Positions 1-39,704 of a stretch of 64,000 nt of DNA are shown here, one piece after another; position 1 is the first letter of the stretch, and each line of letters starts with the position of its first letter. The translations under genes were made by a program, and so were the position numbers. Location of the stretch: the NCBI GenBank assembly GCA_035583355.1, contig DATEZQ010000012.1, positions 24,683 through 88,682 on the forward strand. The letters run 5' to 3'. This stretch comes from Minisyncoccota bacterium. GTDB lineage: Bacteria > Patescibacteriota > Minisyncoccia > Phycocordibacterales > UBA6899. Under the pieces are notes generated by a model. That model did not search any database. It was given only the letters and a program-made list of their open reading frames with translations, and was not told the DNA's origin.

Positions 1-36
1 TACGCGTCCCGAGACCACCCGCAAGAATCACAACTT

Positions 37-1146
37 TCATGGGAGCCTCCCGCTCTGATTTTCGAAGGAAAAGTATTCCTCGATCTGCGCAAGCGTGAAC
101 TCGCGCATATTGACGCTGCCATCATAGTACGCCTGGTACCACTTGATGGTTTGCTCTAAAGCACGTTCCACTTTCCACTGCGAAACCCAACCGAGATGAA
201 CGAATGCTTTCGTCACATCGAGTGCGAGACGACTGGTCTCGTGCTTCTCATGGTCGGGGACAACGCGAAGCTCTCCCACACCTGCACAAGCGATGAGTTT
301 CCTCGTCACCTCACCCACAGAGACCCAAGCATCAACGCTCGGACCAAAGTTCCACGGACCTGAGCACTCCACCATTCCCTCTGCAAGTGACTTTCCAAGC
401 TGCAAATAACCGGAGAGAGGTTCAAGCACATGCTCCCAGGGTCGAATCGCATCGGGGTTGCGGAGTGCAACCACCCCATCTCCAGTAAAAATGGCACGAA
501 TAATATCAGGAACAAGACGGTCTTCAGACCAGTCGCCACCCCCGATGACATTCCCCGCACGCGCGATCGCGACAAGCGTCGAATGTTCAATGCCATATTT
601 TTCGGGATTGAAGTAGGAACGCAGATAGGACTGCGTCACGATATCTGCTGCAGCCTTACTCGCACTGTAGGGATCATATCCCCCAAGCGCATCAATCTCT
701 CGATAGGGATGGACCCACTCTCGGTTCTCATACACCTTATCGGTAGTAACGACCACCGCAGAGCGCACCGTCTGAGTCTCTCGAATACTTTCGAGAACGT
801 GCGTCGTGCCCATCACATTTGTCGAGATAGTCAGCAATGGCTCACGATAACTCCTGCGAACCAGGGGTTGCGCCGCGAGATGAAATACGATCTCTGGTTG
901 TGATTCGATCATGACCTCTCGAAGCGCGCCCCTGTCGCGCACATCGACAACGAAGTTGCGCAATGCCGACCGGAGTTCAAATGCGTCAAAGAGATTCGGC
1001 CCACTAGGTGGCGCGAGTGCGACACCAGTGACCTCGGCACCCCAAGAGGAAAGCAGTAGCGCAAGCCAGCCACCCTTAAAACCGGTATGGCCAGTGATGA
1101 GCACCCTCTTACCTCGATAGAACTCTGCGAGCGAATGACGATACAT
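37..1146 (-). CDS. rfbG: CDP-glucose 4,6-dehydratase
   Basis: 369-aa ORF. N-terminal Rossmann motif KRVLITGHTGFKGGWL and extended-SDR catalytic core (TTDKVY ... YDPYSASK), as in CDP-glucose 4,6-dehydratases (RfbG/DdhB). Confidence 0.75.
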   Translation of the reverse strand: MYRHSLAEFYRGKRVLITGHTGFKGGWLALLLSSWGAEVTGVALAPPSGPNLFDAFELRSALRNFVVDVRDRGALREVMIESQPEIVFHLAAQPLVRRSYREPLLTISTNVMGTTHVLESIRETQTVRSAVVVTTDKVYENREWVHPYREIDALGGYDPYSASKAAADIVTQSYLRSYFNPEKYGIEHSTLVAIARAGNVIGGGDWSEDRLVPDIIRAIFTGDGVVALRNPDAIRPWEHVLEPLSGYLQLGKSLAEGMVECSGPWNFGPSVDAWVSVGEVTRKLIACAGVGELRVVPDHEKHETSRLALDVTKAFVHLGWVSQWKVERALEQTIKWYQAYYDGSVNMREFTLAQIEEYFSFENQSGRLP

Positions 1147-1318
1147 GAATACCTCCCTAATGAACAGAACTTATCGAATACTGCATCAAAAGCAGTAGCG
1201 AGTCAATCTAGAAAATATAACCACACATGAGCAACTTTTGTCCCAATCCTTGTGTTTTACAATTAGATAATATGTGGTAGTGTTTGGCCAGTTCTTTCTT
1301 TTACACAAGGAGCAGTAT

Positions 1319-2518
1319 ATGCGCGTCCCCTACGCTTTTTCATTCCACGGCCAAGAAGAGATCGACGCAGTTGTGAATGTCCTCAAGACAGGTACGGCCG
1401 TCGGCAAAGCCACCAAAGCTTTCGAGGCTGATGTGGCCGTTCGTTTCGGCAAAGCTCATGGCATCATGGTGAATTCCGGTTCGTCCGCGAATCTCCTTGC
1501 CATGGAACTCCTCAACCTCCGGCCTGGCGACGAGGTCATCACACCTCTCCTCACCTTCAGTACGGTCGTGGCGCCCATCATCCAGAAGGGCCTTACCCCA
1601 GTATTCGTCGATGTCGAAGAGGGCACCTACGTTGTCGACCCCAAGCGGGTTGAGGCGGCGATTTCGCCCAAGACCAAGGCGCTCATGATCCCCTCGCTGC
1701 TCGGCAACATCCCGAATCTCCGTGAGCTGCGCGACATCGCGCATCTCCATGACCTCGCCCTCATCGAGGATTCCTGCGACACGCTCGGCGGAATGTTCGA
1801 GGGCGAACCGACTGGATCTTACTCGGACATCACCACCACAAGCTTCTACGGCTCCCACATCATCAATGGTGCGGGCGGTGGTGGTATGATCATGGTCCAC
1901 GACAAAAAACTCGCGGAACGCCTCTTGGTGCTCCGTGGCTGGGGCCGCCAATCTTCGCTCTTCGGCGAAGGTATGGAATCCGAGCGCCCCGAGAACCGCT
2001 TTAATGTGGAGCTCGAGGGTATCGCGTACGATCGCAAGTTCGTTTTCTCGGAAATGGGATACAATTTCCTACCGCTCGAGATCTCGGCAGCCTTCGGTCT
2101 CGAACAGCTCAAGCGTCTTCCGGGATTCATGGATACACGCAGAGAGTCCTTCGCTGACCTCCTGGAATTCTTCGGTCAGTACGAACACCTGTTCACGCTA
2201 CCGAAGCAGACCAAGGGCGCAGATGCGATCTGGCTCGCCTTCCCGATCACCATCAAGGAAGGAGCGCCATTCACACGACTCCAGCTCGCGACCTATCTCG
2301 AAGAGTGCGACATCCAGACGAGGCCCATCTTCACGGGCAACATCCTGAAACAGCCAGGCTTCAAGGATATTCCTCACCGCCTCGCCGAATCGGACTACCC
2401 CGTGACGAATCAGATTATGCGTAGTGGCCTCGTGCTTGCCGCGCATCAGGGCCTCACGAAGGAACAACTTTCGTATATGAAAAACTGCATCTCTGAATTC
2501 ATCGCGCGCAAGTCCTAA
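1319..2518 (+). CDS. rfbH: DegT/DnrJ/EryC1/StrS-family enzyme, E1-type CDP-6-deoxy-D-xylo-4-hexulose 3-dehydrase (RfbH/DdhC-like)
   Basis: ATG at 1319 is preceded by AAGGAG; the ORF track begins at 1274. It has the aminotransferase class V fold. The usual PLP-lysine motif SFxxxK is replaced by SFYGSH (His for Lys), the hallmark of E1 dehydrases of 3,6-dideoxyhexose pathways. Confidence 0.65.
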   Translation: MRVPYAFSFHGQEEIDAVVNVLKTGTAVGKATKAFEADVAVRFGKAHGIMVNSGSSANLLAMELLNLRPGDEVITPLLTFSTVVAPIIQKGLTPVFVDVEEGTYVVDPKRVEAAISPKTKALMIPSLLGNIPNLRELRDIAHLHDLALIEDSCDTLGGMFEGEPTGSYSDITTTSFYGSHIINGAGGGGMIMVHDKKLAERLLVLRGWGRQSSLFGEGMESERPENRFNVELEGIAYDRKFVFSEMGYNFLPLEISAAFGLEQLKRLPGFMDTRRESFADLLEFFGQYEHLFTLPKQTKGADAIWLAFPITIKEGAPFTRLQLATYLEECDIQTRPIFTGNILKQPGFKDIPHRLAESDYPVTNQIMRSGLVLAAHQGLTKEQLSYMKNCISEFIARKS

Positions 2519-2645
2519 TTTTTCTTGCAACGCAAAGACCCGCAACACGCGGGTCTTTTTTTACAAAAACGGTAGCCTTGCCATATCGTAATCAAGTGTT
2601 ATTGTGCTAACAGCACAGTACATTCACAGAAACAAGGAGCGCAAT

Positions 2646-3185
2646 ATGCGCATCGAAACGTTGCAAATTCCCAGCATTTTTCTCATCACCCCTCGCCTCC
2701 TGACCGACAATCGAGGAACGTTCGAGAAATCGTTCATCGCGAGTTTATTTAAGTCTCACGGCATGGATACAGAAATCCAGGAAGAATTTGCATCAACCTC
2801 CGAGAGCGGCGTCATCCGCGGAATGCACTTCCAATCGCCACCAATGGCGTGTGCAAAATATGTTTCCGTGACATCAGGAAGCATTCTCGACGTCGTACTC
2901 GACCTAAGGAGATCTGCATCAACGTACGGCACGCATATCACAATCTTGCTCAGTGCAGAAAATCACCAAATGCTTTATATCCCCCAGGGATTTGCTCATG
3001 GCTTTCTCGCCCTTGAAGACAAAACGGTCGTGCGTTATTTGCAGACGAGGGAGTTTTCACCCGACCACGACAAAGGGATTCACTTTGACTCCTTTGGTTG
3101 TGATTGGCAAGTAAGCAACCCCATCTTGTCGAATCGCGACAAGAGCCATCCCCCGCTTTCAGAGTTTGAAACTCCATTCAAGTAA
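2646..3185 (+). CDS. RmlC-like cupin sugar-nucleotide epimerase (dTDP-4-dehydrorhamnose 3,5-epimerase family; possibly CDP-hexulose 5-epimerase)
   Basis: ATG at 2646 is preceded by AAGGAG; the ORF track starts at 2604. It carries an RGMHFQ motif and size/conservation pattern like RmlC (RGLHFQ). Confidence 0.65.
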   Translation: MRIETLQIPSIFLITPRLLTDNRGTFEKSFIASLFKSHGMDTEIQEEFASTSESGVIRGMHFQSPPMACAKYVSVTSGSILDVVLDLRRSASTYGTHITILLSAENHQMLYIPQGFAHGFLALEDKTVVRYLQTREFSPDHDKGIHFDSFGCDWQVSNPILSNRDKSHPPLSEFETPFK

Positions 3186-3199
3186 TTCAGGGAGGTCAC

Positions 3200-4090
3200 A
3201 TGAAAATTCTAGTCACCGGAGCAACGGGTTTCATTGGCAGTAATCTTGTCGAACGATGCATTGAAAATGGCGACGAAATCACTGCACTCATTCGCCCTAC
3301 CACAAATACGACGAAACTCGACACTCGAGTGCGCACGCATAACTTCACGGGCGACATGTACTCAATCGAGGAACTCTTCGCAAAAAATTACTTCAACGGG
3401 GTGATTCACCTCGCGACGCATTTCCTAGCACAACATCGACCACAAGATATTACGCAACTCCTTGAGAGCAACATATCCTTCGGTACGAAGCTCTTGGATG
3501 TCGCCACGCGGCACGAAACGCCTTGGTTCATCAACACGAGTACGTTTGTGCAATACGCAGCAGACGGCACCTACGCCCCCATGAACCTGTATGCGGCGAC
3601 AAAGCAAGCATTTGCGGATATTGTGCGCTACTACGCAGAAACCTCACCGACGACAATCATTGACATCACACTCTTTGACACGTTCGGGAAGGGCGATACC
3701 CGCAGAAAGCTCGCGAATATCCTCCTTGAGGCTGCACAGAAGAAAATGCCACTTGATATGTCTCCGGGCGAACAGATCCTCGACATCAGCCCCATCGAGA
3801 ACATCATCGACGGATTCGAGAGGATGCTTGAGTTACTTTCAAGTCCAGCGCAGACCAATCTTCGAGGAAAGTCATTCGTGCTCTCGTCAGGGGAACAAAT
3901 GACATTGCGTGACTTCGTGGCGCTCTTTGGTCGCATTTGTGGCCACCCCATCGATGCGCGATTTGGCGCCTTGAACTACCGTCCAAGAGAAATCATGCTT
4001 CCACTACAGCATGGACTTATTGTCCCAGGATGGGAGCCACGACTCACCCTTGAGGAAGCACTGACTTCCTTTATCGGTGTGCAGAAATAA
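3200..4090 (+). CDS. NAD-dependent epimerase/dehydratase (SDR); candidate 4-reductase of the CDP-deoxyhexose pathway
   Basis: MKILVTGATGFIGSNLV Rossmann motif, 296 aa, GGAGG RBS. Confidence 0.65.
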   Translation: MKILVTGATGFIGSNLVERCIENGDEITALIRPTTNTTKLDTRVRTHNFTGDMYSIEELFAKNYFNGVIHLATHFLAQHRPQDITQLLESNISFGTKLLDVATRHETPWFINTSTFVQYAADGTYAPMNLYAATKQAFADIVRYYAETSPTTIIDITLFDTFGKGDTRRKLANILLEAAQKKMPLDMSPGEQILDISPIENIIDGFERMLELLSSPAQTNLRGKSFVLSSGEQMTLRDFVALFGRICGHPIDARFGALNYRPREIMLPLQHGLIVPGWEPRLTLEEALTSFIGVQK

Positions 4091-4145
4091 ACCACACATA
4101 CGGCCCTTCACGGGCCGTTTTTCTTATGTTCCTTCATAAGGCAGC

Positions 4146-5186
4146 ATGGGTGCGGAAACCCACACAGAATGCTATAATCGTCTGATGGAATCTCCAGAAT
4201 CTCCAATCCTCACGGTAGTTTTTCCGGTATATAAAGATCATGATTTTCTTAGGAGAGCACTCACCGCACTCAAGCGACAAACGTTTAGATCTTTCAAAGT
4301 GGTCATCATCGACAATGCATCCCCAGTTGGATTCGATGCACTCAGAGAAGAGTTTAAAGCGGAATTTCCCGTTGAAATCACTCGGAACGAAACAAATATT
4401 GGTGCAATGCCGAATATGCTCAAAAGCATCACCTTCCCTGTTGATACAAAATACATACTCTCTCAACATGCCGACGACTTCCTGAAGTCGGATTATCTTG
4501 AACAAGCAATACTACTCCTCGAAAAAAACCCATCCATCTCATGGGTCACAACTGGACCAGAATGGGTTTCGAAAGATATCACATTCACTGAAAAAAGGAT
4601 GGATAGTACTGAGTACATCACCTTCGATGCAGCTGAATTTGCGGAAGCAGTACTGAACTTCACTCCATTCATCTTTGGTGCGGTCATATATCGTAAGGAG
4701 CAGCGAATTTATGACTGGAAATTCAACCTCTACGATGTATTCTGTGATCGCTTCATGCTGGGGACCATTCTTGAACAGTTCAATGCTCATGGAGCTTTTT
4801 TCACAGGAAGGGGGATATTCGAACGTGACCACACACTTGATGTAAGAGACGATCGTGGCTCCACTCTAACCCCTACACATGCAATCAACCTACTTTCTTT
4901 CTATCGAGGCCTCCTCACAAAGAAGTTTCCCCGAAATAAAGTCGACGTTCTCAGTACGAACGCAGCGCTCTACTACCTTAGCACGTTCCCAAGAAGCTTC
5001 TCGCTTCGAGCATTTCTCAAAGAACAAAAGCCTCATCATCTCATAAGCATACATGCAATACGCGGACTCGGCTTATACGCACTTTTCACACGCCTTCTCT
5101 CAAACAGCGCGAAACTAGGATTACTGCGATTCCGAAAGCGTATAAAAAACCTTTTTCACTATAATCGAGTTATAGAAAACACATGA
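4146..5186 (+). CDS. family 2 glycosyltransferase
   Basis: VVFPVYKDHDFLRRALTALKRQTFRSFKVVIIDNASP motif (GT-A fold; DxD region follows). The start may be the ATG at 4185. Confidence 0.6.
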   Translation: MGAETHTECYNRLMESPESPILTVVFPVYKDHDFLRRALTALKRQTFRSFKVVIIDNASPVGFDALREEFKAEFPVEITRNETNIGAMPNMLKSITFPVDTKYILSQHADDFLKSDYLEQAILLLEKNPSISWVTTGPEWVSKDITFTEKRMDSTEYITFDAAEFAEAVLNFTPFIFGAVIYRKEQRIYDWKFNLYDVFCDRFMLGTILEQFNAHGAFFTGRGIFERDHTLDVRDDRGSTLTPTHAINLLSFYRGLLTKKFPRNKVDVLSTNAALYYLSTFPRSFSLRAFLKEQKPHHLISIHAIRGLGLYALFTRLLSNSAKLGLLRFRKRIKNLFHYNRVIENT

Positions 5187-6112
5187 AAGTCATTACACTA
5201 ATCCCAGTCAAAAATGAAGCATGGATCCTACCCTGGACGCTAAAGAATTTTTCTGACTTCTCTGATGTCATCATCATTGCAGACCAGCAATCAACGGATG
5301 CGACTCGAGCAATCTGTGCGCAATTCCCAAAAGTCAAAGTCATTGATAATAACAATCAAGGCCATTCGAACATGGTACGCTGGCTCCTCCTAGATGAGGC
5401 ACGTAAAATTCCAGGAGAAAAACTGATCGTTTTCCTTGATGCAGACGAACCGATTTCACCAAAGGCAATTGAAGCAATGAAAGCAGCATGCACAAGGAAG
5501 CCACTTGCGTTCGTTGCGGACTGGGTACAGCTCATGAACGATGGCACTGTTCATCGTGTTGATGGCGTATGGCGCAAGAGCCTAAAAGCCTTTGCATTCT
5601 ATGATGACGACAAGGTGAAATTTCCACAACAGGTGGTTATTAATGATCATACCGCACGAATCCCTCCAATCACCGACAGTATCTCGATAAGCCTCCCCAT
5701 CCTCCATCTGCACTTCATGGCACTTGAGAGAAATAAGATTAAGCAGGTTTGGTATATGTGTCATGAACTTGCTGCTGGCATACACCCTTATCGTGTGAAC
5801 AACAAGTATGCAATTGCAAAATTTGAAAAGATAGAAACTGAACCAGTTCCTTCGGAATGGCTCGAAGGAGTAACTCTTCCTCCTCATGATGCATTCAATG
5901 CACCAGATATCGAGAGAGAGGAGCGTATTCAAGAACTGTTCAAAGAAAAAGGCATCGCATTCTTTGAACCACTTGATATATGGAATAACATGACACTGCG
6001 AGCACAATTCGAAAAAGAAGTCGGGCGCGCTCCGAATCCCTCGTTGCCACCAAAGTGGCTCGTATCACTCAATGATATGAAAAACTATATCCGATATAAG
6101 CTTCTCAAATAA
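5183..6112 (+). CDS. GT2-like glycosyltransferase
   Basis: VITLIPVKNEAWILPWTL ... IIIADQQSTDAT ... FLDADE (DxD) pattern. The start overlaps the upstream stop (ATGA), indicating translational coupling. Confidence 0.5.
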   Translation: MKVITLIPVKNEAWILPWTLKNFSDFSDVIIIADQQSTDATRAICAQFPKVKVIDNNNQGHSNMVRWLLLDEARKIPGEKLIVFLDADEPISPKAIEAMKAACTRKPLAFVADWVQLMNDGTVHRVDGVWRKSLKAFAFYDDDKVKFPQQVVINDHTARIPPITDSISISLPILHLHFMALERNKIKQVWYMCHELAAGIHPYRVNNKYAIAKFEKIETEPVPSEWLEGVTLPPHDAFNAPDIEREERIQELFKEKGIAFFEPLDIWNNMTLRAQFEKEVGRAPNPSLPPKWLVSLNDMKNYIRYKLLK

Positions 6113-6133
6113 AAGAGGGCTAGTAATACTCAT

Positions 6134-6994
6134 ATGAAAAGAACCATTATCGCCCTTCTTGAGCGCATACTCAACAAAGCAATCCTTGTACTACCCCCAC
6201 AGGTTGTCCGTGGTAACCTTAAAACCGCCGTATACTCAAAACTCGGTTTTTGGTATGTTGGTAATGTATTTAGCGTAGCAGATATCGCATATGGCATTGC
6301 TTACAGCGGTGGATCCGTTGAAGAAAATGGTACGAAGCTCACAATTAACCTGCTTCGCCAGCTCAAACAAAAGAAACAACATCTTGTTTTCTACGATATC
6401 GGCGCAAATACAGGCTACTATGGAATTCTCGCTGCCGCACAAGACCAATCGATACAAGTGCACTCATTTGAACCGCTAGAGGAGCACCTTGAATGCCTTA
6501 CCGAAACTGTAAAACTCAACAACTTCTCTGACCGCATCACAATTCACCCTATTGCTATCGGAGATTCGAAAACGACCGCAGAAATCACGATTGCAGGATC
6601 AGGTTCCAGTCTCGTCAAAGGTTTCAATGGGGACATGAAACTTGCGAAGCGAAATATCACTGTAGAGACTCTTGATGGACTTTCACTTCCCCCTCCTGAT
6701 TTCATAAAGATTGACGTTGAGGGCTTCGAATACCGAGCATTGCTCGGTGGACGAAAGACGATCGCCGCGGCGCACCCTGTGCTTTATATCGAGATTGCAC
6801 ACTCACTCAGCAAGAGAGCGTATATCAATGAAGATTTCCAGAAAATTTTCGACCTACTCGGCGATGAAGGATACACCGCATATCTCCACAAGGGCGAAAA
6901 CCTTGTGAGTATTCCAGAGGTACCCATCGATGGGGCATATATGTACTTATTTATCCACAAAGAGACACCACTCGATCTTCCTTTCGTAAAGTAA
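6134..6994 (+). CDS. FkbM-family methyltransferase
   Basis: FYDIGANTGYYGILAA SAM-binding motif and FEP motif typical of FkbM methyltransferases. Confidence 0.6.
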   Translation: MKRTIIALLERILNKAILVLPPQVVRGNLKTAVYSKLGFWYVGNVFSVADIAYGIAYSGGSVEENGTKLTINLLRQLKQKKQHLVFYDIGANTGYYGILAAAQDQSIQVHSFEPLEEHLECLTETVKLNNFSDRITIHPIAIGDSKTTAEITIAGSGSSLVKGFNGDMKLAKRNITVETLDGLSLPPPDFIKIDVEGFEYRALLGGRKTIAAAHPVLYIEIAHSLSKRAYINEDFQKIFDLLGDEGYTAYLHKGENLVSIPEVPIDGAYMYLFIHKETPLDLPFVK

Positions 6995-7049
6995 TCAGAA
7001 GATAAGAACACCCGTCGAAAATACACATCTTTTAATCAAACTCATATTC

Positions 7050-8162
7050 ATGAAAAATCAAAATTTTTGGTACGGAAAGCGAGTCCTCGTTACTGGGGCA
7101 GACGGATTTGTTGCCGCAAACCTCATAAAGAAGTTACTTGGCCTTGGTGCCGTAGTTGTCGGAACAGTGCGTCATAATCGCCCAATCAAAACACTTGAGT
7201 TGCTCGACGAGGGAGAAGAGAAGAGCTCATCGCCGGATATTGAGTTCAACGATCTGCTCGACTTTGCTGCAACTCGTAGAATTTGTGATAGGCATCAGAT
7301 TGATACAATCTTCCACCTCGCAGCAATTTCAATCGTAAGTAATGCGGCGAATTCTCCCATCTCAACAATCGAGAATAATGTCGAGACTACCTTGAATCTC
7401 CTTGAGGTTGCCCGTACGAACAATATTCCACGTGTGGTTATTGTTTCAACTGACAAAGTGTACGGTGATCATGCAAATGATACCGAGGAAACACTCCCTT
7501 ATCGAGAACACTATGCACTCCGCGGATTGGACGTCTATAGTTCATCTAAAGTTGCAGCAGATATGATTGCACAAACGTACGCATATCAATACAAGCTCCC
7601 AGTGATGATTACACGAGCATGTAATATTTATGGCCCAGGAGACCTCAACTTCACAAGGCTTATACCAAGAACGATAATGCGTCTTATGGAGGGCAAGGCC
7701 CCTGTCATCAATATCGGCAACGAACATGTCCTTCGTGAATATATCTATGTTGATGATGTTGTTGACGCATATCTCTTGCTTGCAGAGAAGACGAATGAGT
7801 ATTATGGACAGAATCTTGAGAATATGCCCTCAAGCGGAGCAAAAACGTACGGATGGTCAGCCTTCAATATCGGCAATTATGACAAGAAGGATCTTGCGGA
7901 AGTCAAGAAGTGTGATCGCATCCAAAGTGTGACCGACATCATTGCACTCTTGGGTGCCCGTATCAAAAAGATAGAACCAGTCATCATTCCTAAGCCAGTG
8001 AATTTCATCGAAATTCCAGATCAATATGCTGATGCAAGCAAGATAAGACAGCTCGGCTTCAGTCCAAAGACGACGATGAGTGATGGAATCGCAAAAACGG
8101 TTGCCTGGTACACAAAGCACCAAGAGCAACTTGCCCCACTTGCAGAAAAATATATGAACTAA
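7050..8162 (+). CDS. NAD-dependent sugar-nucleotide 4,6-dehydratase/epimerase (extended SDR)
   Basis: GKRVLVTGADGFVAANL, STDKVYG, YSSSK motifs; 370 aa. Confidence 0.6.
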   Translation: MKNQNFWYGKRVLVTGADGFVAANLIKKLLGLGAVVVGTVRHNRPIKTLELLDEGEEKSSSPDIEFNDLLDFAATRRICDRHQIDTIFHLAAISIVSNAANSPISTIENNVETTLNLLEVARTNNIPRVVIVSTDKVYGDHANDTEETLPYREHYALRGLDVYSSSKVAADMIAQTYAYQYKLPVMITRACNIYGPGDLNFTRLIPRTIMRLMEGKAPVINIGNEHVLREYIYVDDVVDAYLLLAEKTNEYYGQNLENMPSSGAKTYGWSAFNIGNYDKKDLAEVKKCDRIQSVTDIIALLGARIKKIEPVIIPKPVNFIEIPDQYADASKIRQLGFSPKTTMSDGIAKTVAWYTKHQEQLAPLAEKYMN

Positions 8163-8163
8163 C

Positions 8164-9399
8164 ATGAGTCTTTCTTCCTTCATAAACACACACATGCATC
8201 GCGGAAAAATTTACTGGAACATTCGAGAAGCATATGTGCGTTCTTTCTCATTCATGAAGATGTTAATTGATAAGCCCAGAAAAAATACGAAGAAAAGATT
8301 GCTTTTCTATCATCTTGCTGGACTCGATTTTGGCGGTACCGAAAAATATCTCCAAATACTGGCAAAGCATCTTGATAAGAATAAATATGATGTATATTTT
8401 CTTCATCCCGAGCTCCATGAGGAAGGAGATAAAAGAAAGAGTCGTTTGAACTACATTCGAGATGGTAAGGTAATCGCGATCCCTTTTGCACACGAAAGGG
8501 CAGATGATGTGCCTCCCCACTTCGTTTCTGGTATGAATCCTGAAATTCATGAACTCATCAAAGCATTAAACATCGACATACTCGTAATGGCAGAGGTGGG
8601 TGGCGCGAACTACCCACTCACGACAGTTCGAAATATCCCCATCATCATGATCAATATTTTTGGTGTACCAAATGTGCAAAAAAATATTGTTTACCATATC
8701 TGCATTTCTGAAGAAGTCTCTGCAAAGCTTGAGGGAGTTGTATCAAAAGAAAAACGGGTCGTCTTTCCTGTCCCCTCTGAACCTCCCCTCCCCGAAATGC
8801 TTGCGCGAGGCAAAGCAATTCGAGAGAAATTTGGAATCAAGGATTCCGACTTTGTATTCGGAAGAATAGGTCGCCCATCAGATGGCATCTTTGACCCCAT
8901 CGGGATTAATGCGTTTGAGCTTATCGTGAAGAACCACCCCGAAGCACATTACATCATCATGGCCCCAATGCCTGCATTGAAATCGATTGTGAGCGAACGA
9001 AATATCCCAAATGTACATTACATTGACCCAAGCTACGAAGAAGAAGATATTTGGGGATTCCATGGATCACTCGATGCGCTTGCACACTTCAGATTCGACG
9101 GAGAATCATTCGGACTAAATATCGCAGAGTCAATGATTGCAGGAAATCCAATACTCTCCCACAAGTCGCACATCTGGAATGCACACCTTGAGTATCTCGA
9201 TAGCAATTTTAGTCTAGTAAGCGAGAAAGATGATTTCGCTACATATGCTAAAAATATGGAGTCATTCATTGCAAAGAAGAAAAATAGCGACTTCCAAAAC
9301 ATGCGACGCGCAGCAGAGAAGAAGGGACGTGAACTTTTTCTCATCGATACGACAATGAAGCGATTTGAAGAACTCATCGAGACGGCATTCAATAAATAG
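8164..9399 (+). CDS. group 1 (GT4-like) glycosyltransferase
   Basis: C-terminal FRFDGESFGLNIAESMIAGNPIL motif (E-x7-E-type GT-B donor-binding motif); 411 aa. Confidence 0.5.
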   Translation: MSLSSFINTHMHRGKIYWNIREAYVRSFSFMKMLIDKPRKNTKKRLLFYHLAGLDFGGTEKYLQILAKHLDKNKYDVYFLHPELHEEGDKRKSRLNYIRDGKVIAIPFAHERADDVPPHFVSGMNPEIHELIKALNIDILVMAEVGGANYPLTTVRNIPIIMINIFGVPNVQKNIVYHICISEEVSAKLEGVVSKEKRVVFPVPSEPPLPEMLARGKAIREKFGIKDSDFVFGRIGRPSDGIFDPIGINAFELIVKNHPEAHYIIMAPMPALKSIVSERNIPNVHYIDPSYEEEDIWGFHGSLDALAHFRFDGESFGLNIAESMIAGNPILSHKSHIWNAHLEYLDSNFSLVSEKDDFATYAKNMESFIAKKKNSDFQNMRRAAEKKGRELFLIDTTMKRFEELIETAFNK

Positions 9400-9402
9400 A
9401 TT

Positions 9403-10230
9403 GTGCACAGTCACCCACTTATGAAATTCAGAAAAGCACTCGACAACCCACTCGTTGTATTCTCCTACATCTGGAGACATACCTACCAAAGACTTGTTGC
9501 CGACAAGGATGCAGACATTTATGGAAAAGTACGTTTCTTAAGCGAAACAGAAACTCTTGATGAGCTAATGAACCATAGTCGCTCTATGATTCGTGCAGGA
9601 GATGGGACGTTTGGATATCTCATGGGGGCGAGTATCTATTTCAATAATTGGCACTTTCGCTACAATCGTGCATTTGCGAGAATCCTCCTCTCGTCCCTTA
9701 AAGAAGCTGAGGCTGAGGGTATACTACTTTGCTTTCCCCATGAACAAATAACCCGAAAGAAAGAAGAATACCGATTGGCGAATATTCCCCACGAGTGGTC
9801 CATCTGGATTTCTGCGAAAATTCTTGCGAGGAAACTGCTTCGCGAAGGGTCTACATATGGAAACTCAATGTGCTTTCATCCGAAACACAATAAACACATA
9901 GACTTCCCCAGAATAAAGCACTTCCTTTCGACGCGACATGTCTATATCGTCACTTCTGGTGTTGAACGATTTACCGATATTAAGCTTGGACTAAGCACAA
10001 CCTTCATCGAGGCACCAGCTAATGACGCGTGGAGAGTCTATACACAGCTTGAAGATTCCGTACTTAGAGTAATCAGGACCAACGGCCACCAAAAGAACGA
10101 GGTGCTCATCATGATCTCAGCCGCAGAGGCAGCAAAAGTCATGATCCTTGATCTGCACAGGCAAGGTTATGTGTGCTGGGACACAGGGCAGTTCTTCGAG
10201 CTTGCATGTAAGCAAATAGCGGCACTCTAA
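9403..10230 (+). CDS. putative GT-D (DUF1792-like) glycosyltransferase / hypothetical
   Basis: GTG at 9403 or ATG at 9421. The pattern ETLDEL...RSMIRAGDGTF resembles the R-x-GDGE-F signature I recall for the DUF1792/GT-D family. The gene sits inside the glycan locus. Confidence 0.35.
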   Translation: MHSHPLMKFRKALDNPLVVFSYIWRHTYQRLVADKDADIYGKVRFLSETETLDELMNHSRSMIRAGDGTFGYLMGASIYFNNWHFRYNRAFARILLSSLKEAEAEGILLCFPHEQITRKKEEYRLANIPHEWSIWISAKILARKLLREGSTYGNSMCFHPKHNKHIDFPRIKHFLSTRHVYIVTSGVERFTDIKLGLSTTFIEAPANDAWRVYTQLEDSVLRVIRTNGHQKNEVLIMISAAEAAKVMILDLHRQGYVCWDTGQFFELACKQIAAL

Positions 10231-10244
10231 AGATTCACACTACG

Positions 10245-10275
10245 CAAAAAAACGGCCACCGAGTGGCCGTTTTTG
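10245..10275. terminator. bidirectional intrinsic terminator
   Basis: aaaaaaacggccaccgagtggccgtttttgc between convergent genes. Confidence 0.6.
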
Positions 10276-10279
10276 CTAT

Positions 10280-11212
10280 CTAGAGCGCACGGATAGAATC
10301 AAGCAAGCCAACCGACGGCTCCCAGCCGAACATCTTTTTCGCAAGAGCACTTTCGACGACAACTGACGCAAGAGCTCCTGGTGTAGATTCTTGCACAACT
10401 AAGGAGACTTTTGTATCAGTGACTTCTTCAACTGCCGCAATGACCTGCTTGAGCGTCGTCGCTTTCCCAGAGCCGACATTGAAAGTACCAGACGGGGCAC
10501 CAGGGAGTAACTGCATGAGCCTCAGCACATCACGAATATCCACGAAATCTCTGGCCATTGAACCATCACTCGTCGGGTGATGAATGCCAGAAAGCGTAAT
10601 TGGCTTACCCTTGCGAGCAGCATCAAGCGCGATATCAAGGAAAGTATTCACGCCAGAAGCAGAGGGGGCTGGCCCTACAAGATTTGCCAGTCGAAGTATT
10701 TGAAAATCCGAAATCCACTTCTTCTCAGCATACTCTTGTATGAAACGTTCGCCGAGCAGCTTAGTGAGCGCATACGTTGATGCTGGACCAACAGGACTTG
10801 ATTCATTGAGTTGTGCAACAGGAGTACATGAAGCATAGACCGCCCATGTCGAAGCGAAAACAATATGCTGCACGCCTGCGGCTTTCATCGCCGATAGGAC
10901 AGCACGTGTTCCGTCGATATTCACCGAGCAATACTCCAATGGTATCCGCTCACTCTCGCCAACATTCTTCAGGGATGCAAAATGAAAAACAGAGTCAACG
11001 CTGTTTTCAGTCATTATCTCTGCCAAGCGGCTTTCGTCCCGAATATCAGCGGTAGCATAAACAGCACCACTAGGAAGCCAGGCTGGAATCACCTTACGGC
11101 GCCCAAGCGCGATAACCCTGTCTCCTCGGGCGCAGCAAGCAACGGTGGCCGCAGAGCCGAGTGTGCCATCTGCGCCAGTAATGAGAATAACGCGTGTTTT
11201 GGTCATATTCAT
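10280..11212 (-). CDS. NAD-dependent epimerase/dehydratase (UDP-glucose 4-epimerase-like SDR)
   Basis: RVILITGADGTLGSA Rossmann motif, 310 aa. A shared bidirectional terminator at 10245-10275 serves it and the convergent upstream gene. Confidence 0.65.
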   Translation of the reverse strand: MNMTKTRVILITGADGTLGSAATVACCARGDRVIALGRRKVIPAWLPSGAVYATADIRDESRLAEIMTENSVDSVFHFASLKNVGESERIPLEYCSVNIDGTRAVLSAMKAAGVQHIVFASTWAVYASCTPVAQLNESSPVGPASTYALTKLLGERFIQEYAEKKWISDFQILRLANLVGPAPSASGVNTFLDIALDAARKGKPITLSGIHHPTSDGSMARDFVDIRDVLRLMQLLPGAPSGTFNVGSGKATTLKQVIAAVEEVTDTKVSLVVQESTPGALASVVVESALAKKMFGWEPSVGLLDSIRAL

Positions 11213-11299
11213 ATGATACTCCTAAGTATCTCAAATGAATATACTCCACAAACACAAGCGTTGCAAACGATAATTCTATCTGCTATAGTTCGAATACTT

Positions 11300-12250
11300 A
11301 TGATTACGGGAGAGCACATTTTCATTACTGGTGGAGCTGGATTTCTTGGGAAAAATCTCGTCCGACGCTACTACAAGGATAATGAAATTACCATCTACAG
11401 TAGAGATGAGGCAAAGCATTATTTCCTGAAGAAGGAGTTCCCAAAAATCCACTGTGTCATTGGCGACGTGAGAGATTTTGAACGTCTCAATAATGCGGCC
11501 AGGGGGTGCACGATAGGAATTTTCACCGCATCACTTAAGCAGGTGGAAGCAGTGGACGAGAATCCCGAAGTTGCAATTGAGACGATTATTCAAGGAGGAA
11601 TCAACTCTCGAAAGGTTGCAATCGCAAACAACTTCAAAGCAGCAACATTCATCTCGACAGACAAGAGTCGTGCAGCAACGACCCTCTACGGAGCGATGAA
11701 ATTCGTTGGTGGAGAACTTTTCATTCTCAATGCTGAAAGAGAAAAGCCACTACTCTCGGCGGTCATCTATGGCAACGTATTTAATTCTACAGGCTCCATC
11801 ATCCCACTCATCTGGGATGCTATCGCAAAAAATTACGAGCTTGCGCTCTACGGAGAAGAAATGACACGTTTCATGATCGAGATTGAGGCTGCAATCGATT
11901 GTGTTGAAGTCGCACTCAAGGATACAGGCGCAAGTATTGTCCCCGCCCTCCACTCTATGCGCATAAAAGACCTCTTTGAGATCTATGCTGAGCGCTTTGG
12001 CCTTCGCTACCACGTCGGAGTACCACGTATCTCAGAAAAGCTCCACGAACAAATGATTGCGCATGCAGAAGCACCGCGAACAAGCTTCAATCCAAGTACA
12101 AATATGTACAGGATTCACTACAAGGAGATATCCGGAACCGTGACACTTCCCATTGAGGGATACAGCTCAGAGCACCACCTCCTCACAAAGCAGGAACTGG
12201 ATGCCTTGCTCAAAAAACACGACTATTACAAAGGGAGTCCGTTCATGTAA
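11300..12250 (+). CDS. PseB/CapD-like UDP-sugar 4,6-dehydratase (polysaccharide biosynthesis protein)
   Basis: In-frame ATG at 11300 gives MITGEHIFITGGAGFLGKNLVRRYYKDNEITIYSRDEAKH, typical of PseB/FlaA1/CapD. The ORF-track N-terminus (10982-) overlaps the convergent gene and is rejected. Confidence 0.6.
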   Translation: MITGEHIFITGGAGFLGKNLVRRYYKDNEITIYSRDEAKHYFLKKEFPKIHCVIGDVRDFERLNNAARGCTIGIFTASLKQVEAVDENPEVAIETIIQGGINSRKVAIANNFKAATFISTDKSRAATTLYGAMKFVGGELFILNAEREKPLLSAVIYGNVFNSTGSIIPLIWDAIAKNYELALYGEEMTRFMIEIEAAIDCVEVALKDTGASIVPALHSMRIKDLFEIYAERFGLRYHVGVPRISEKLHEQMIAHAEAPRTSFNPSTNMYRIHYKEISGTVTLPIEGYSSEHHLLTKQELDALLKKHDYYKGSPFM

Positions 12251-12260
12251 CGTTTCTAAT

Positions 12261-12328
12261 AAAAAACGAACATACCTGTTCGTTTTTTTATTTAGTGGAA
12301 ATAAAAACGCCCACACCATGTGGGCGTT
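12261..12328. terminator. two adjacent intrinsic terminators between convergent genes
   Basis: aaaaaacgaacatacctgttcgttttttt and aaaaacgcccacaccatgtgggcgtt. Confidence 0.55.
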
Positions 12329-12347
12329 AACTGAACAAGATCTGAAC

Positions 12348-13202
12348 CTAGAGGTTCGCGAGACTTTCAGTGATGTAATCCCGAATAGAGCGCTCAGCTT
12401 TCCATCCGAACTCACCACGTGCACGCGCCACCTCTACTGATGCACCCATACGGTTACCAGGACGTGGAGGGAGCATCTCGATCGGGCGATTGAACATCTG
12501 CGCGATTTCGAGCACAGTAAAGGCCTCATCGGAACCGAGGCCATAATCATCCCCCTCTCCCTGCTCACCGACACACACGAGTCCACGCACGATGTCTGCA
12601 ACGTGTGTAAAATTTCTCTGCTGCGTGCCTGGGGCGACTACGGGAAGAGGCTTCCCTTCACGCGCAAATGTAAGATACTTCGCGATCAATGTCGCATATT
12701 GCCCTTCAGCAATCTCTCGTGGGCCATAAGCGTTGTAAAAATACGTGATCGCATATCTCAGCCCGTACCAAGAGTGATAATTACGCACCAGTTCAGTGTT
12801 CGCTGCCTTTGTCCAAGCATACGGACTCTGATCACGACCGAGACCACCATCGCCAAACTTTGTACTGCTCCCCGCATAGACGATTTTTGCGCCATGCTTC
12901 CTGCAGAATTCCAGAACAGCGAAGGTACCTCTTACGTTATAGTGATGGACTAATTGTATATCAGCAAAACTTTGTTCCACGCGCGAATACTCACCAAGAT
13001 GGAACACCAACTCGGGCTTTTCGTCGATGAGTGTGGCGATATGCTCGGTGTCCCCGCGGACGTAACGGGCGCCAGAAAAATGATTTGCCTGCGTGCCCGT
13101 GAAGTAATTGTCCAAAACGGTCACCTCATGCCCACGCGCAAGCATTGCCTCGACAAGATGTGAGCCGATAAAACCGGCGCCACCAGTAATGAGTACTTTC
13201 AT
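12348..13202 (-). CDS. NAD-dependent epimerase/dehydratase (SDR)
   Basis: MKVLITGGAGFIGSHLVEAML motif; 284 aa. Confidence 0.65.
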   Translation of the reverse strand: MKVLITGGAGFIGSHLVEAMLARGHEVTVLDNYFTGTQANHFSGARYVRGDTEHIATLIDEKPELVFHLGEYSRVEQSFADIQLVHHYNVRGTFAVLEFCRKHGAKIVYAGSSTKFGDGGLGRDQSPYAWTKAANTELVRNYHSWYGLRYAITYFYNAYGPREIAEGQYATLIAKYLTFAREGKPLPVVAPGTQQRNFTHVADIVRGLVCVGEQGEGDDYGLGSDEAFTVLEIAQMFNRPIEMLPPRPGNRMGASVEVARARGEFGWKAERSIRDYITESLANL

Positions 13203-13294
13203 GTGTTCTCCTTATAAAGATTATCTACCCCAATAACTACCGCATATAGAGAAAAGTTGCAAGACACTTAGCAAAATGCGAACAGACACATACC

Positions 13295-14197
13295 TCAAGA
13301 ACCCTCAGGGAATTGGACCCCATAGACCTCACCAAGCAGATCGAGGTCCTTCTTACTCTCTCTAAGGTACTGACAATTGCGAGCTTCCATTGCACGCAGT
13401 ATTGCTAAGGTTTTATCGTCATTTGGCAACGACCGCTCAAACATTTCCCGTAGTGCCGCAAAATCTTTAATAAAGCAATGACCACCTGCACCCCTACCCT
13501 GCGCTGCACCTGGATGACCACTCGTATCCATGATACGCAAATGTGACGGACCAATGCGTGGATCAGTACCGATTCCTTTCATAATATTTTCCCAACCAAC
13601 ACCATTCGCCGCAGCAAGATCAGCAATGAGATTTGCATAAAGCACTTTTGTAAAAAGAAAACAATTCGCAGCATACTTTATGAGCTCGGCTTCCTTTGCT
13701 GCACAGATCAGTGTAAAAGGAGAAGCAGGAAGTATCGAGAGTACCTGCTCAGCTTTTTGTCGATACTCGACAGTATCTTTTGGAATGCCAATGATATTCC
13801 TCGTTGGATGAGCAGCATCGTATGCAGCTGTCTTCTCAGCGAGAAATTCTGGTGAATGCATAATAAAGAGATCTGGGTATTCTTTCTGTATAGACTCTGT
13901 AGCACCCACCGCCAACGTCGACTTGATCACAACGATCGTTCCTGGGGCGACGAGTCCAACTGCATTGCGCACAATAGAGTCATCGAATCCATCCGGCGTT
14001 GTAGGCGTCGGGACTGCAATGAATATAATCTTACAATTTTTCAACTTAGCCTTATTCTGCACATACGGTTCCTCAAGCGCATAACGTACTACTGCTATTC
14101 CTCGATTTTCAAAATCATTTGAATAATTTTTTCCAATGAACCCTTGTCCTATAAAACCAACGAACTCAGCTCTTGAATCAACGATTTCAGTTGTCAT
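13295..14197 (-). CDS. UDP-glucose/GDP-mannose dehydrogenase family protein (short, 300 aa)
   Basis: Motifs FIAVPTP, EFLAEKTA and the catalytic-Cys motif GGHCFIKD (GGxCxxKD). It lacks the usual C-terminal UDP-binding domain. Confidence 0.5.
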   Translation of the reverse strand: MTTEIVDSRAEFVGFIGQGFIGKNYSNDFENRGIAVVRYALEEPYVQNKAKLKNCKIIFIAVPTPTTPDGFDDSIVRNAVGLVAPGTIVVIKSTLAVGATESIQKEYPDLFIMHSPEFLAEKTAAYDAAHPTRNIIGIPKDTVEYRQKAEQVLSILPASPFTLICAAKEAELIKYAANCFLFTKVLYANLIADLAAANGVGWENIMKGIGTDPRIGPSHLRIMDTSGHPGAAQGRGAGGHCFIKDFAALREMFERSLPNDDKTLAILRAMEARNCQYLRESKKDLDLLGEVYGVQFPEGS

Positions 14198-15140: not shown

Positions 15141-16604
15141 TTAAGTTATGTCTTCCAAGTTGGAGTCCAACTCTATAAACGTATATTTCTCTGCTTCCGC
15201 ATCTACTTCCCTATTCGGATTAAATCCTTTCGAGAGTGCAATAATGAGTCCCGCAGCGCCGACAAAGAATGCGGCGAGGACCCAATATCCCCACACAGGA
15301 AAACGAAAGCCTTTTGTTACACTCGACATACTCCAGTCACCGAGTGAGGTTGCTGTCGTTGTCGCTGCCTTCCCCAAGACAGGTGGTTGCAGCGCAGAGC
15401 GTGCAAGCGCAAGCTGTGCTGAAGGATAACTATCAACAACAAGCTCCGCTTCGTCATCACTTCCTACAGCAGACATCAGTCTTCCATCAGCACGGAAGAG
15501 TGCGAGCGTCTGCTGCACATACATACCAGTGATGGCATTTGGAAATGTTGCCGCAACCTTCCCAAAGAGTTGTGTCTGCGGAGGAAAAGCAAATGACACA
15601 TTTCCATCACGAAGTGTCCAGCCGGAGATATCTATATCAACAGGAGAAATAATGGACACGTATCCATCAATCCCGGGAAGTGCGGTCACAATATGCACAT
15701 CTTGTGCAATCACTTGCGCTCGCGCGCGTACTTGTGTGCTCAGTCCCTTATATGCCGCAGTGACGATCACAGGATAGGTCCCTGGAAAACGATACGTATG
15801 TGTCACCGCAGTGCCTGTCGCAACCGCGCCGTCACCAAAGTTCCAAGTCACTACCGCATCAGGAAGCATTTCATCATGGAGACCACTTACACTTGCACGT
15901 AAAGCGGTTGGGATGTCTTTGTATATGCGCTCGTTTGAATGCACGACAATACGATAACTTTCACGAGTGACGGTAGTTTTATTTGTAGCAGAGGCACTGC
16001 CCGAAGAAGTACCTGAAACAGTGATGTCCTGCACATTATCTGGAGTATTCGTTGCACTCGATTCAATGACTGGAGTCGTATTATCACCACTTGTATTGTC
16101 CGAAACAGAAGAAGGAGTTGGTGCACCAGGTGTCCCCGCTGCGGTCACCCAGCCTGAGGTGCTGCGCTGCGCAGTTTCCTTCGAAGAGACACTGCCTCCA
16201 ATATTTTTCCAACTTACTCCCCCGATTACCTCATCCACGACTGCACCACTCGCATCGAGCAGATTGAGGGTCATGCCATCATTACTGAGGCCTGTCGAAA
16301 AAGAGGCAATAAGATCAGCAGGAATTTCTGGGATGACATTATCATTCGAACGTTCGATGAGATAGTAGCCGTCAGCCGCAATGGAACCAGTGAGCGCAAT
16401 AGAAATTTTTGCAGGCACGGAAACAATCTTCCAACCTGAAAGAGTAACATCAGAATTACCAGTATTGTGTAATTCAATCCATTCATTTGAAGAACCTGCA
16501 GAGGTTCCCATCCATGCGATCTCATTTATTTCGACAGCTGCAAAACAAACGCTTGGCAGCAAAAAGAGAACGCTCATCGCCAACATTCGATGTAACATAC
16601 ACAA
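15141..16604 (-). CDS. secreted lamin-tail-domain (LTD) protein with C-terminal TM anchor
   Basis: Signal peptide MLAMSVLFLLPSVCFA; the LTD signature is INEIAWMG...EWIELHN. It has Thr/Ser-rich linkers and a C-terminal hydrophobic helix. Confidence 0.45.
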   Translation of the reverse strand: MCMLHRMLAMSVLFLLPSVCFAAVEINEIAWMGTSAGSSNEWIELHNTGNSDVTLSGWKIVSVPAKISIALTGSIAADGYYLIERSNDNVIPEIPADLIASFSTGLSNDGMTLNLLDASGAVVDEVIGGVSWKNIGGSVSSKETAQRSTSGWVTAAGTPGAPTPSSVSDNTSGDNTTPVIESSATNTPDNVQDITVSGTSSGSASATNKTTVTRESYRIVVHSNERIYKDIPTALRASVSGLHDEMLPDAVVTWNFGDGAVATGTAVTHTYRFPGTYPVIVTAAYKGLSTQVRARAQVIAQDVHIVTALPGIDGYVSIISPVDIDISGWTLRDGNVSFAFPPQTQLFGKVAATFPNAITGMYVQQTLALFRADGRLMSAVGSDDEAELVVDSYPSAQLALARSALQPPVLGKAATTTATSLGDWSMSSVTKGFRFPVWGYWVLAAFFVGAAGLIIALSKGFNPNREVDAEAEKYTFIELDSNLEDIT

Positions 16605-27384: not shown

Positions 27385-28898
<1,514 letters not shown>

Positions 28899-32397: not shown

Positions 32398-32507
32398 TTG
32401 TACTCTATTATACAGGGAGAAAATGCAGAATGCCAGTGAAAATCCAGTCATGAGACATGAGCTTGAGTCATGAGGGAATTCAAAAGTAGACATCACCCAC
32501 TTCAAAT

Positions 32508-38020: not shown

Positions 38021-38023
38021 ACG

Positions 38024-38200: not shown

Positions 38201-38246
38201 ACTAGTAGCTCTCCAATTCTCTTAGTCTTAACTAGCCTCCTTGCCT

Positions 38247-38690: not shown

Positions 38691-38694
38691 ATTA

Positions 38695-39656: not shown

Positions 39657-39704
39657 ATATGGCCTGCAAAAAGAAAAAACAACACGCGAGTGTTGTTTTT
39701 GTTT
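39657..39704. repeat. 43-bp direct repeat DR-right
   Basis: See DR-left. Confidence 0.55.

Follow-up and report, generated by a model that had tools for sequence, protein, structure and literature searches.

How might a bacterium strip the C3 hydroxyl from a cytidine diphosphate (CDP)-hexose when the electron-donating partner of the textbook enzyme is missing from the neighbourhood? This question is raised by the left end of a 64,000-nucleotide stretch of a Minisyncoccota bacterium (assembly GCA_035583355.1, contig DATEZQ010000012.1, positions 24,683 to 88,682; hereafter the window), where a relative of the 3-dehydratase E1 is encoded among nucleotide-sugar genes. A first-pass annotation had read these genes as a CDP-3,6-dideoxyhexose-type pathway and had named the E1 reductase, E3, as its obligate partner. 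Three types of sugar 3-dehydratase are distinguished in the literature: E1, which acts on CDP-sugars, carries an iron-sulfur (Fe-S) cluster and is served by E3; SpnQ, which acts on deoxythymidine diphosphate (dTDP)-sugars, carries an Fe-S cluster and is served by general reductases; and ColD, which acts on guanosine diphosphate (GDP)-sugars and has no cluster (PMC8987622). In ColD, the adduct between pyridoxamine 5'-phosphate (PMP) and the enamine sugar is hydrolysed, and PMP is restored from glutamate (PMC8987622). In C. jejuni, GDP-3,6-dideoxyheptose is made by way of a ColD-type enzyme, after which a C5 epimerase and then a C4 reductase act. We judge it fairly probable that the leftmost 4.1 kb of the window, together with the gene cut by its edge, is a five-gene, ascarylose-type CDP-3,6-dideoxy-L-hexose module lying in a Wzx/Wzy glycan locus, in which the predicted 3-dehydratase would work in the manner of ColD and without E3.

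The genes in question, called from the listing of open reading frames (ORFs) and from profile searches (Pfam, NCBIfam) of the window proteins, are as follows (SDR, short-chain dehydrogenase/reductase; NDP, nucleoside diphosphate).

40 to 2 (listed as 1..40), minus strand: 5' end of a glucose-1-phosphate cytidylyltransferase gene, first 13 codons MKVVILAGGLGTR; the remainder lies past the window edge
37-1146, minus strand: CDP-glucose 4,6-dehydratase (TIGR02622, 450.7 bits, cut-off 278.45)
1319-2518, plus strand: DegT-family, E1-like NDP-4-keto-6-deoxyhexose 3-dehydratase, predicted to be PMP-dependent, without the [2Fe-2S] motif, 399 amino acids (PF01041, 264 bits)
1940-2002, plus strand: cysteine-free loop WGRQSSLFGEGMESERPENRF of the 3-dehydratase, aligned at the place of the E1 Fe-S motif WGRDCYCAPGCDNTCKKRF
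2646-3185 (ORF from 2604), plus strand: RmlC-like cupin epimerase (PF00908; TIGR01221, 160.9 bits, cut-off 155.75)
3200-4090, plus strand: extended SDR (PF01370; below the cut-off of every NCBIfam family)
4100-4118, plus strand: terminator-like GC-rich hairpin with a run of T, at the end of the nucleotide-sugar sub-operon

The E1-like gene likely starts at the ATG at 1319, within an ORF that is open from 1274, as AAGGAG stands ahead of it at 1307-1312 and the resulting length of 399 residues compares with 398-402 in homologues. The closest relatives of its product in the PDB are E1 of Yersinia pseudotuberculosis (3bcx, 1.4e-72) and then ColD (1.5e-50), and an AlphaFold2 model (pLDDT 86.2, with low confidence at the replacement loop) has template modelling (TM) scores of 0.85 to 3bcx and 0.81 to ColD. 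With the E1 enzymes of Yersinia and Salmonella (AscC, DdhC, RfbH), the window protein shares 37% identity, the fold-type I architecture of a DegT-family PMP enzyme, a presumed substrate, adjacent rfbF and rfbG genes (divergent in the window), and a histidine in place of the Schiff-base lysine. This histidine, which the first-pass annotation had picked out in an SFYGSH motif (nucleotides 1841-1858), is His180 (codon 1856-1858) and does align with His220 of E1, the position of that lysine.

The designation E1 holds for the fold and the histidine and breaks down at the cluster. In E1, the segment WGRDCYCAPGCDNTCKKRF contains three of the four [2Fe-2S] ligands, whereas the window protein reads WGRQSSLFGEGMESERPENRF in the same place, with no cysteine at all; C251 is replaced by serine, C253 by glycine and C261 by proline, and the equivalent of C193 is retained, as it is in ColD. 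In keeping with a position outside the canonical family, the protein scores 343.6 bits against the RfbH equivalog model NF011936, below the cut-off of 423. The residue ahead of the histidine is serine (S179-H180) rather than the alanine of E1, giving the Ser-His dyad found in ColD. Thirty-five homologues show no variation at residues W208, G209, R210, S212, S213, L214, G216, E217, S221, E222, N226, R227 and F228 of the replacement loop, and so strong a conservation points to a maintained design and not to decay. As an enzyme without a [2Fe-2S] cluster would accept no electrons from E3 or ferredoxin in the way that E1 and SpnQ do, E3 is probably not the obligate partner that had been assumed for this protein.

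These observations bear directly on the simplest alternative, namely that the protein is a canonical E1 whose E3 (ddhD or ascD) is encoded elsewhere in the genome. Its sequence and fold do match E1 best and JGI labels its homologues "E1"; nevertheless, with three of the four ligands absent here and in every close homologue, with a score under the RfbH cut-off, and with no acceptor for the electrons of E3 once the cluster is gone, we hold this alternative to be extremely unlikely. The resemblance to ColD and to the C3-dehydratases of GDP-3,6-dideoxyheptose synthesis in C. jejuni lies in the Ser-His pair that replaces lysine, in the missing Fe-S cluster and, as far as the E3 search described below reached, in the lack of a dedicated reductase. 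The window protein differs from ColD in overall sequence (about 30% identity), in having a conserved loop of E1 length where ColD has a short RAHGWxR loop, and in standing in a CDP-glucose context rather than the GDP-mannose/heptose context of gmd, colC and manB/manC; the two also fall into separate clades.

The loss of the ligands is shared by a wide group of relatives. All of the 120 closest cluster representatives (62-100% identity) keep the histidine and have lost C251, C253 and C261, with one to four cysteines in the whole protein. A HMMER search over 1.84 billion cluster representatives (50%-identity clusters) gave 1,149 matches at E<=1e-30, the best 150 of which were examined. The nearest 28 of these (41-54% identity) all lack the Fe-S motif, and the first intact C-H-C-C-C signature appears at rank 29 (39% identity); about 60 of the best 150 have the intact signature and about 12 are ColD-like, with the short RAHGWxR loop. 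In a neighbour-joining tree, which carries no bootstrap support, the query sits in a clade of 42 leaves with no Fe-S member, apart from the ColD clade, and a single pure clade unites 48 Fe-S proteins. The residue preceding the histidine follows the same division, being serine in 60 of 78 cysteine-less proteins and in 12 of 12 ColD-like proteins, and alanine in 53 of 60 Fe-S proteins.

A scan for gene loci found a relative in at least 575 species-representative genomes. The query was a narrower alignment, as one mixing cysteine-less and Fe-S proteins proved too diverse, and the Fe-S controls described below were therefore taken from plasmids. The best 80 genomes span many lineages of the candidate phyla radiation (CPR) at 58-68% identity. 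At 53-56% identity follow cultured Proteobacteria (Paracoccus isoporae DSM 22220, Ruegeria, Aliiruegeria, Stappia, Leisingera, Ensifer and Allopontixanthobacter), Bacteroidota, Legionellales and one Methanosarcinales metagenome-assembled genome (MAG). The histidine is present in 85 of 85 proteins extracted from these loci, and the motif region holds no cysteine in 82 and one cysteine in three. Databases call such cysteine-less proteins E1 (JGI), a generic aminotransferase or, in error, "NarL family transcriptional regulator", the last being a misannotation that has spread among CPR MAGs at NCBI (P0002, P0008, P0040 and P0061). Inteins of about 350-400 residues were also seen among the relatives: in the true E1-type proteins P0169, P0195, P0197, P0209, P0212, P0223, P0256 and P0266 they sit exactly within the cysteine motif (WGRxC...intein...HNCWC), and one cysteine-less protein (P0128) has an intein at a different site.

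The supply of CDP-glucose could be followed past the window edge on a public contig (L001, 38.9 kb), found by exact protein match, which agrees with the window at 11,146 of 11,146 overlapping nucleotides and reaches 9,963 nucleotides past position 1. It carries the complete cytidylyltransferase gene (11107-11883; TIGR02623, 345.4 bits, cut-off 300.25), which overlaps the stop of the CDP-glucose dehydratase gene by 4 bp. A cytidylyltransferase gene just upstream of position 1 had been anticipated, and it is there, except that its first 13 codons already lie within the window. Farther upstream are genes for two methyltransferases, a Wzx-type flippase, a family 2 glycosyltransferase (GT2), a Caps_synth-type glycosyltransferase, a GDSL-like protein, an MBOAT protein and a Wzy_C-TPR protein, none of them resembling E3.

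The E3 gene expected in the same place did not appear. E3 queries from the Salmonella rfb region and from a Sphingomonas hengshuiensis plasmid, which detect each other at about 1e-60, found no homologue in the window, in the 9,963-nucleotide upstream extension or in 83 related loci (1.65 Mb), no match there being stronger than E=0.085. This amounts to no E3 in 74 kb here, which counts further against a canonical E1; a scan by regular expression for plant-type ferredoxin motifs gave spurious matches only, in non-coding frames or unrelated proteins. In order to read this absence correctly, it must be set against the controls. Of eight loci with canonical rfbH, all keep the Fe-S motif and two have an E3 within 10 kb, compared with none of the 83 cysteine-less loci; the other six, on plasmids of Azospirillum, Methylovirgula, Qipengyuania, Desulfobaculum, Sulfitobacter and Streptomyces, have an intact rfbH and no E3 within 10 kb, so a distant E3 would be nothing unusual. 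Because only two of eight controls have a nearby E3, adjacency is a weak guide, and the case rests mainly on the lost ligands.

A second alternative, that the protein is SpnQ-like and that its glucoseen intermediate is reduced by general ferredoxin or flavodoxin reductases, or by an adjacent or fused SDR, instead of being turned over with an amino donor, finds some support in the gene fusions. SpnQ itself functions without a dedicated E3 (PMC8987622), and, like the window protein, is a His-type PMP dehydratase with no dedicated E3 nearby. Cysteine-less homologues are often fused to SDR domains, but these resemble ordinary 4,6-dehydratases or 4-reductases, as in P0121, where the fused SDR matches GDP_Man_Dehyd over its full length (229 bits). 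No fusion of a cysteine-less dehydratase to a ferredoxin, ferredoxin-NADP+ reductase (FNR) or E3 domain occurs among the fusion proteins examined. We know of no precedent for direct reduction of a PMP-glucoseen by NAD(P)H. In addition, SpnQ-type enzymes keep the [2Fe-2S] motif, as in the Streptomyces control, and adjoin NDP-hexose 2,3-dehydratase genes, whereas the window protein lacks the motif; neither a Nudix-type 2,3-dehydratase nor a thymidylyltransferase was found in the locus with Pfam and NCBIfam. This alternative thus appears very unlikely.

Gene order ties the 3-dehydratase to the genes around it. Homologues of the cytidylyltransferase and the CDP-glucose dehydratase accompany the cysteine-less gene in 38 of 83 distinct loci, within 5 kb in 37 of them, and 11 of the 83 additionally have the RmlC-like and SDR pair. 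The Pfam contexts of four independent loci have an identical core, to which two add genes for thiamine pyrophosphate (TPP) enzymes or split transketolases. In P. isoporae the order is cytidylyltransferase, dehydratase, cysteine-less E1-like protein, SDR and GT2, and elsewhere the cysteine-less dehydratase forms fusions with SDR domains or, in P0124, with an RmlC-like domain.

The closest known arrangement is that of a Sphingomonas hengshuiensis plasmid, which reads E3-rfbF-rfbG-rfbH-RmlC-like-SDR-wzx and so has the dehydratase, epimerase and reductase in the same order as the window; the module also occurs in Qipengyuania spongiae. The cytidylyltransferase is 50% identical to its Sphingomonas counterpart, the CDP-glucose dehydratase 49% to rfbG of Sphingomonas and 45% to that of Salmonella, and the 3-dehydratase 37% to Sphingomonas RfbH. 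Such values compare with those to the Yersinia and Salmonella systems as a group (50% for the cytidylyltransferase, 45-49% for the dehydratase). The tailoring pair follows directly 3' of the 3-dehydratase gene, as expected of an ascarylose-type pair. Its RmlC-like member is 47% identical to the RmlC-like protein encoded behind the canonical rfbH of the Sphingomonas plasmid, compared with 34% to Salmonella RmlC. The SDR is 38% identical to the Sphingomonas SDR encoded next after the RmlC-like protein, and shares 26% identity (8e-32) with the CDP-abequose synthase of Salmonella. The differences are that both modules have an intact RfbH Fe-S motif and that of Sphingomonas an adjacent E3, of which the window has neither, and that rfbG and rfbF are divergent in the window. 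From the homology of both the tailoring pair and the supply genes, the window set may be described as the same module minus E3 and the cluster. Judged from sequence, the RmlC-like protein is a predicted CDP-4-keto-3,6-dideoxyhexose 5-epimerase in the role of AscE and the SDR a predicted NAD(P)H-dependent C4-ketoreductase in the role of AscF.

The tailoring pair also gives rise to a third alternative, in which the RmlC-like protein and the SDR act directly on the 4-keto-6-deoxy intermediate to make a CDP-6-deoxy-L-hexose of the 6-deoxy-L-altrose type, or 6-deoxy-D-gulose, the E1-like protein being separate or dispensable. There is a parallel in Y. pseudotuberculosis, where L-Altf is made through ddhA/ddhB and altA/altB without DdhC/D. 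The top PDB match of the RmlC-like protein is 5buv (WbcA, the CDP-sugar 3-epimerase in the synthesis of 6-deoxy-D-gulose), and this too counts for the direct route. However, the order of E1-like, RmlC-like and SDR genes is kept in several CPR loci and in the Sphingomonas and Qipengyuania modules, 11 loci keep all three genes, and P0124 joins an RmlC-like to an E1-like domain, so we regard this direct route as quite unlikely.

A fourth possibility is a different PMP or pyridoxal 5'-phosphate (PLP) chemistry, for instance transamination at C4 to a CDP-4-amino-4,6-dideoxyhexose with no C3 deoxygenation. The fold is that of sugar aminotransferases, and SpnQ, when deprived of a reductase, acts as an aminotransferase, if a slow one, with PLP and glutamate (PMC8987622). 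Under such conditions ColD and E1 show no transaminase activity (PMC8987622). Histidine in place of the Schiff-base lysine, a hallmark of dehydratases, is found in all members; the conserved and in part fused RmlC-like epimerase and 4-ketoreductase need a 4-keto product; and the canonical module has a true RfbH in the same slot. A different chemistry of this kind is consequently unlikely. None of the four alternatives accounts for the conserved loss of ligands and the conserved gene order as well as a ColD-like 3-dehydratase in a CDP-3,6-dideoxyhexose pathway.

For this preferred pathway, the steps would be as follows. The cytidylyltransferase would make CDP-glucose, which the CDP-glucose 4,6-dehydratase would convert to CDP-4-keto-6-deoxy-D-glucose. 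The E1-like enzyme, in its PMP-bound form and using His180 as general base, would then strip the C3 hydroxyl; hydrolysis of the resulting PMP-glucoseen adduct would yield PLP plus an enamine sugar, which would tautomerise and lose NH3 to leave the 3-deoxy-4-keto sugar, and PMP would be restored by an amino donor such as L-glutamate. The RmlC-like epimerase would flip C5 and the SDR would reduce C4, to give a CDP-3,6-dideoxy-L-hexose, either ascarylose or its C4 epimer. The C5 and C4 stereochemical reasoning follows established carbohydrate chemistry. Turnover of the ColD type is what the missing cluster, the Ser-His dyad and the following epimerase and reductase suggest, and we infer the substrate and the product stereochemistry along with it. 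As ColD deoxygenates C3 without E3, the absence of E3 does not refute the pathway, contrary to what had been proposed, and a CDP-3,6-dideoxyhexose-type pathway is still the best reading of a CDP-glucose 4,6-dehydratase, a His-type PMP dehydratase, an RmlC-like protein and an SDR in one set.

Several points weigh against this reading. The 3-dehydratase is closer to E1 than to ColD (248 compared with 176 bits, with the TM scores of 0.85 and 0.81 in the same direction), and the argument for ColD-like turnover is drawn from absences plus one shared serine. The E1 [2Fe-2S] ligands are taken here to be C193, C251, C253 and C261, as reportedly assigned by Agnihotri et al. 2004; the spacing C193-X57-C251-X1-C253-X7-C261 fits the 3bcx sequence. 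CDP-glucose genes are present in 32 of the 61 loci with full flanks, about half, and members of the clade may therefore differ in the nucleotide that they prefer. The NCBIfam threshold for dTDP-RmlC is exceeded by the RmlC-like protein, which together with the SDR could act directly on the 4-keto-6-deoxy intermediate to yield a CDP-6-deoxy-L-hexose. Finally, the search of this genome for E3 covered the window and about 10 kb upstream of it, and a missing neighbour E3 is weak on its own, given that two of eight controls carry one.

Past the hairpin, the locus continues with the following genes (GT-B and GT-D, glycosyltransferase folds; UDP, uridine diphosphate; HexNAc, N-acetylhexosamine), in which the starts of the GT1-like and GT-D genes are those called on the overlapping contig L001.

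4146-5186 and 5183-6112, plus strand: two GT2 glycosyltransferases (PF00535)
6134-6994, plus strand: FkbM-family methyltransferase (PF05050, TIGR01444)
7050-8162, plus strand: second NDP-hexose 4,6-dehydratase-like SDR (155 bits with the CDP-glucose model and 151 bits with the dTDP-glucose dehydratase model, both below cut-off)
8194-9399, plus strand: family 1 glycosyltransferase (GT1)-like (GT-B) protein, a weak match (PF00534, 25.8 bits, slightly under the cut-off)
9421-10230, plus strand: GT-D-fold glycosyltransferase (PF08759, 34.1 bits)
10280-11212, minus strand: GalE-like NDP-sugar 4-epimerase-type SDR (TIGR01179, 162 bits, below the cut-off of 262; UDP-glucose 4-epimerases in the PDB at 8e-35)
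11300-12250, plus strand: Polysacc_synt_2 (PseB/CapD/FlaA1-like) UDP-HexNAc 4,6-dehydratase-type SDR (PF02719, 140 bits; PseB, 176 bits, below the cut-off of 408; PDB 4tqg and 2gn4)
12348-13202, minus strand: extended SDR, UDP-glucuronate decarboxylase- or 4-epimerase-like (profile and PDB matches)
13295-14197, minus strand: short UDP-glucose/GDP-mannose dehydrogenase-like protein, with N-terminal and central domains and no C-terminal UDP-binding domain

Each gene that the first-pass annotation named was recovered at its position with Pfam and NCBIfam. The start of the Polysacc_synt_2 dehydratase gene is probably 11300, as the N-terminus of its ORF overlaps the neighbouring gene. The two GT2 proteins, the FkbM methyltransferase and the GT1-like and GT-D proteins, with the Wzx, Wzy-like, MBOAT and methyltransferase genes upstream, would build and export a methylated, acylated surface glycan, for which the remaining SDR and UDP-glucose dehydrogenase (UGDH)-like genes would supply further UDP-sugars. 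Named relatives of the RecG protein encoded elsewhere in the window come from Candidatus Lloydbacteria (69% identity) and from Paceibacterota/Parcubacteria, in keeping with a CPR (Patescibacteria) host. We regard the locus as a cell-surface glycan cluster and not as a lipopolysaccharide (LPS) O-antigen cluster.

For the second 4,6-dehydratase-like SDR (7050-8162), RmlB is the top PDB match. Homologues 34-37% identical to it adjoin cysteine-less E1-like and cytidylyltransferase-like genes in six CPR loci (L020, L026, L027, L028, L043 and L051), and it may represent an alternative CDP-hexose 4,6-dehydratase family.

The UGDH-like gene at 13295-14197 had been called truncated. The C-terminal UDP-binding domain, and only that, is indeed gone, but the protein is a conserved short form: it retains the GxGxxG and the catalytic GGHCFIKD motifs and has a homologue of 294 amino acids in another Parcubacteria genome (L059). 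A recent pseudogene was considered and ruled out by the conserved short and fused homologues. In L059 (12893-14814), the 294-residue form is followed by a GT1-type protein, and in L075 (2777-4801) a UGDH-like protein is fused to a Glyco_trans_1_4 domain in an ORF of 674 amino acids; a GT-B half-domain may substitute for the lost UDP-binding domain.

Base composition had been taken to suggest horizontal acquisition of the genes at 4.1-10.2 kb. The GC content of 4101-10230 is 0.437 compared with a window mean of 0.472 (standard deviation 0.038, 2-kb windows), a dip of about one standard deviation that makes a weak case for transfer. The outliers in composition are the CDP-sugar genes, which are high at 0.54-0.57, and, at 38-42 kb, an island of low GC; GC content drops from about 0.52 to about 0.44 at the hairpin at 4100-4118. 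The strongest anomaly in the window is that island (about 38000-42000, GC 0.34-0.38 compared with the mean of 0.472), in which an ORF of 588 amino acids (39798-41564, minus strand) has no match among the NCBIfam models.

Elsewhere in the window, a full-length 16S rRNA gene lies at 27389-28905 on the minus strand with no 23S rRNA gene in the 64 kb, so the rRNA genes are unlinked, and tRNA genes are found at 23886, 37875 and 60683. Other genes encode ClpX, FtsH, RecG, PhoH2 and PilM (31279-32505). A protein with lamin-tail and PKD domains that adjoins ung, and an ORF of 818 amino acids with a weak match to TraD-like coupling proteins, are recorded together at 15141-16604 and 18286-20742, both on the minus strand.

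Related loci hint at possible further chemistry. TPP-enzyme or transketolase genes follow the E1-like gene in two Kaiserbacteria loci and in other CPR loci, which would fit a branched-chain, yersiniose-like sugar made from the 3,6-dideoxy-4-keto intermediate. TPP enzymes or split transketolases stand beside both cysteine-less and canonical 3-dehydratases (L002/L003 4052-7941, L005 5713-7915, L090 11262-13015), a pattern suggesting that CPR bacteria and Methylovirgula make branched-chain sugars of the yersiniose kind.

A literature search of incomplete coverage turned up no account of a CDP-hexose 3-dehydratase that is both free of Fe-S and independent of E3. We would put at about even chances a broader proposal, that the cysteine-less His-type E1-like proteins are a fourth mechanistic class of 3-dehydratase, derived from E1, serving mostly CDP-glucose pathways, free of both Fe-S cluster and reductase and turning over as ColD does, and that they provide the main route of CPR/Patescibacteria to 3,6-dideoxyhexoses and derived branched sugars, with members also in many Proteobacteria and Bacteroidota. 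Textbooks give the E1/E3 pair as the radical route to 3,6-dideoxyhexoses, and the "E1" annotations of KEGG and JGI, like surveys of pathways, assume that E3 is needed. If the proposal is true, predictions that demand E3 would under-call dideoxyhexose synthesis, especially in CPR bacteria, whose surface glycans are nearly unknown. The family would also provide a simpler enzyme-plus-glutamate tool for making CDP-3,6-dideoxy sugars in vitro, and would constitute a natural experiment in which a one-electron, cluster-dependent enzyme converted to, or descended from, a two-electron enzyme driven by transamination.

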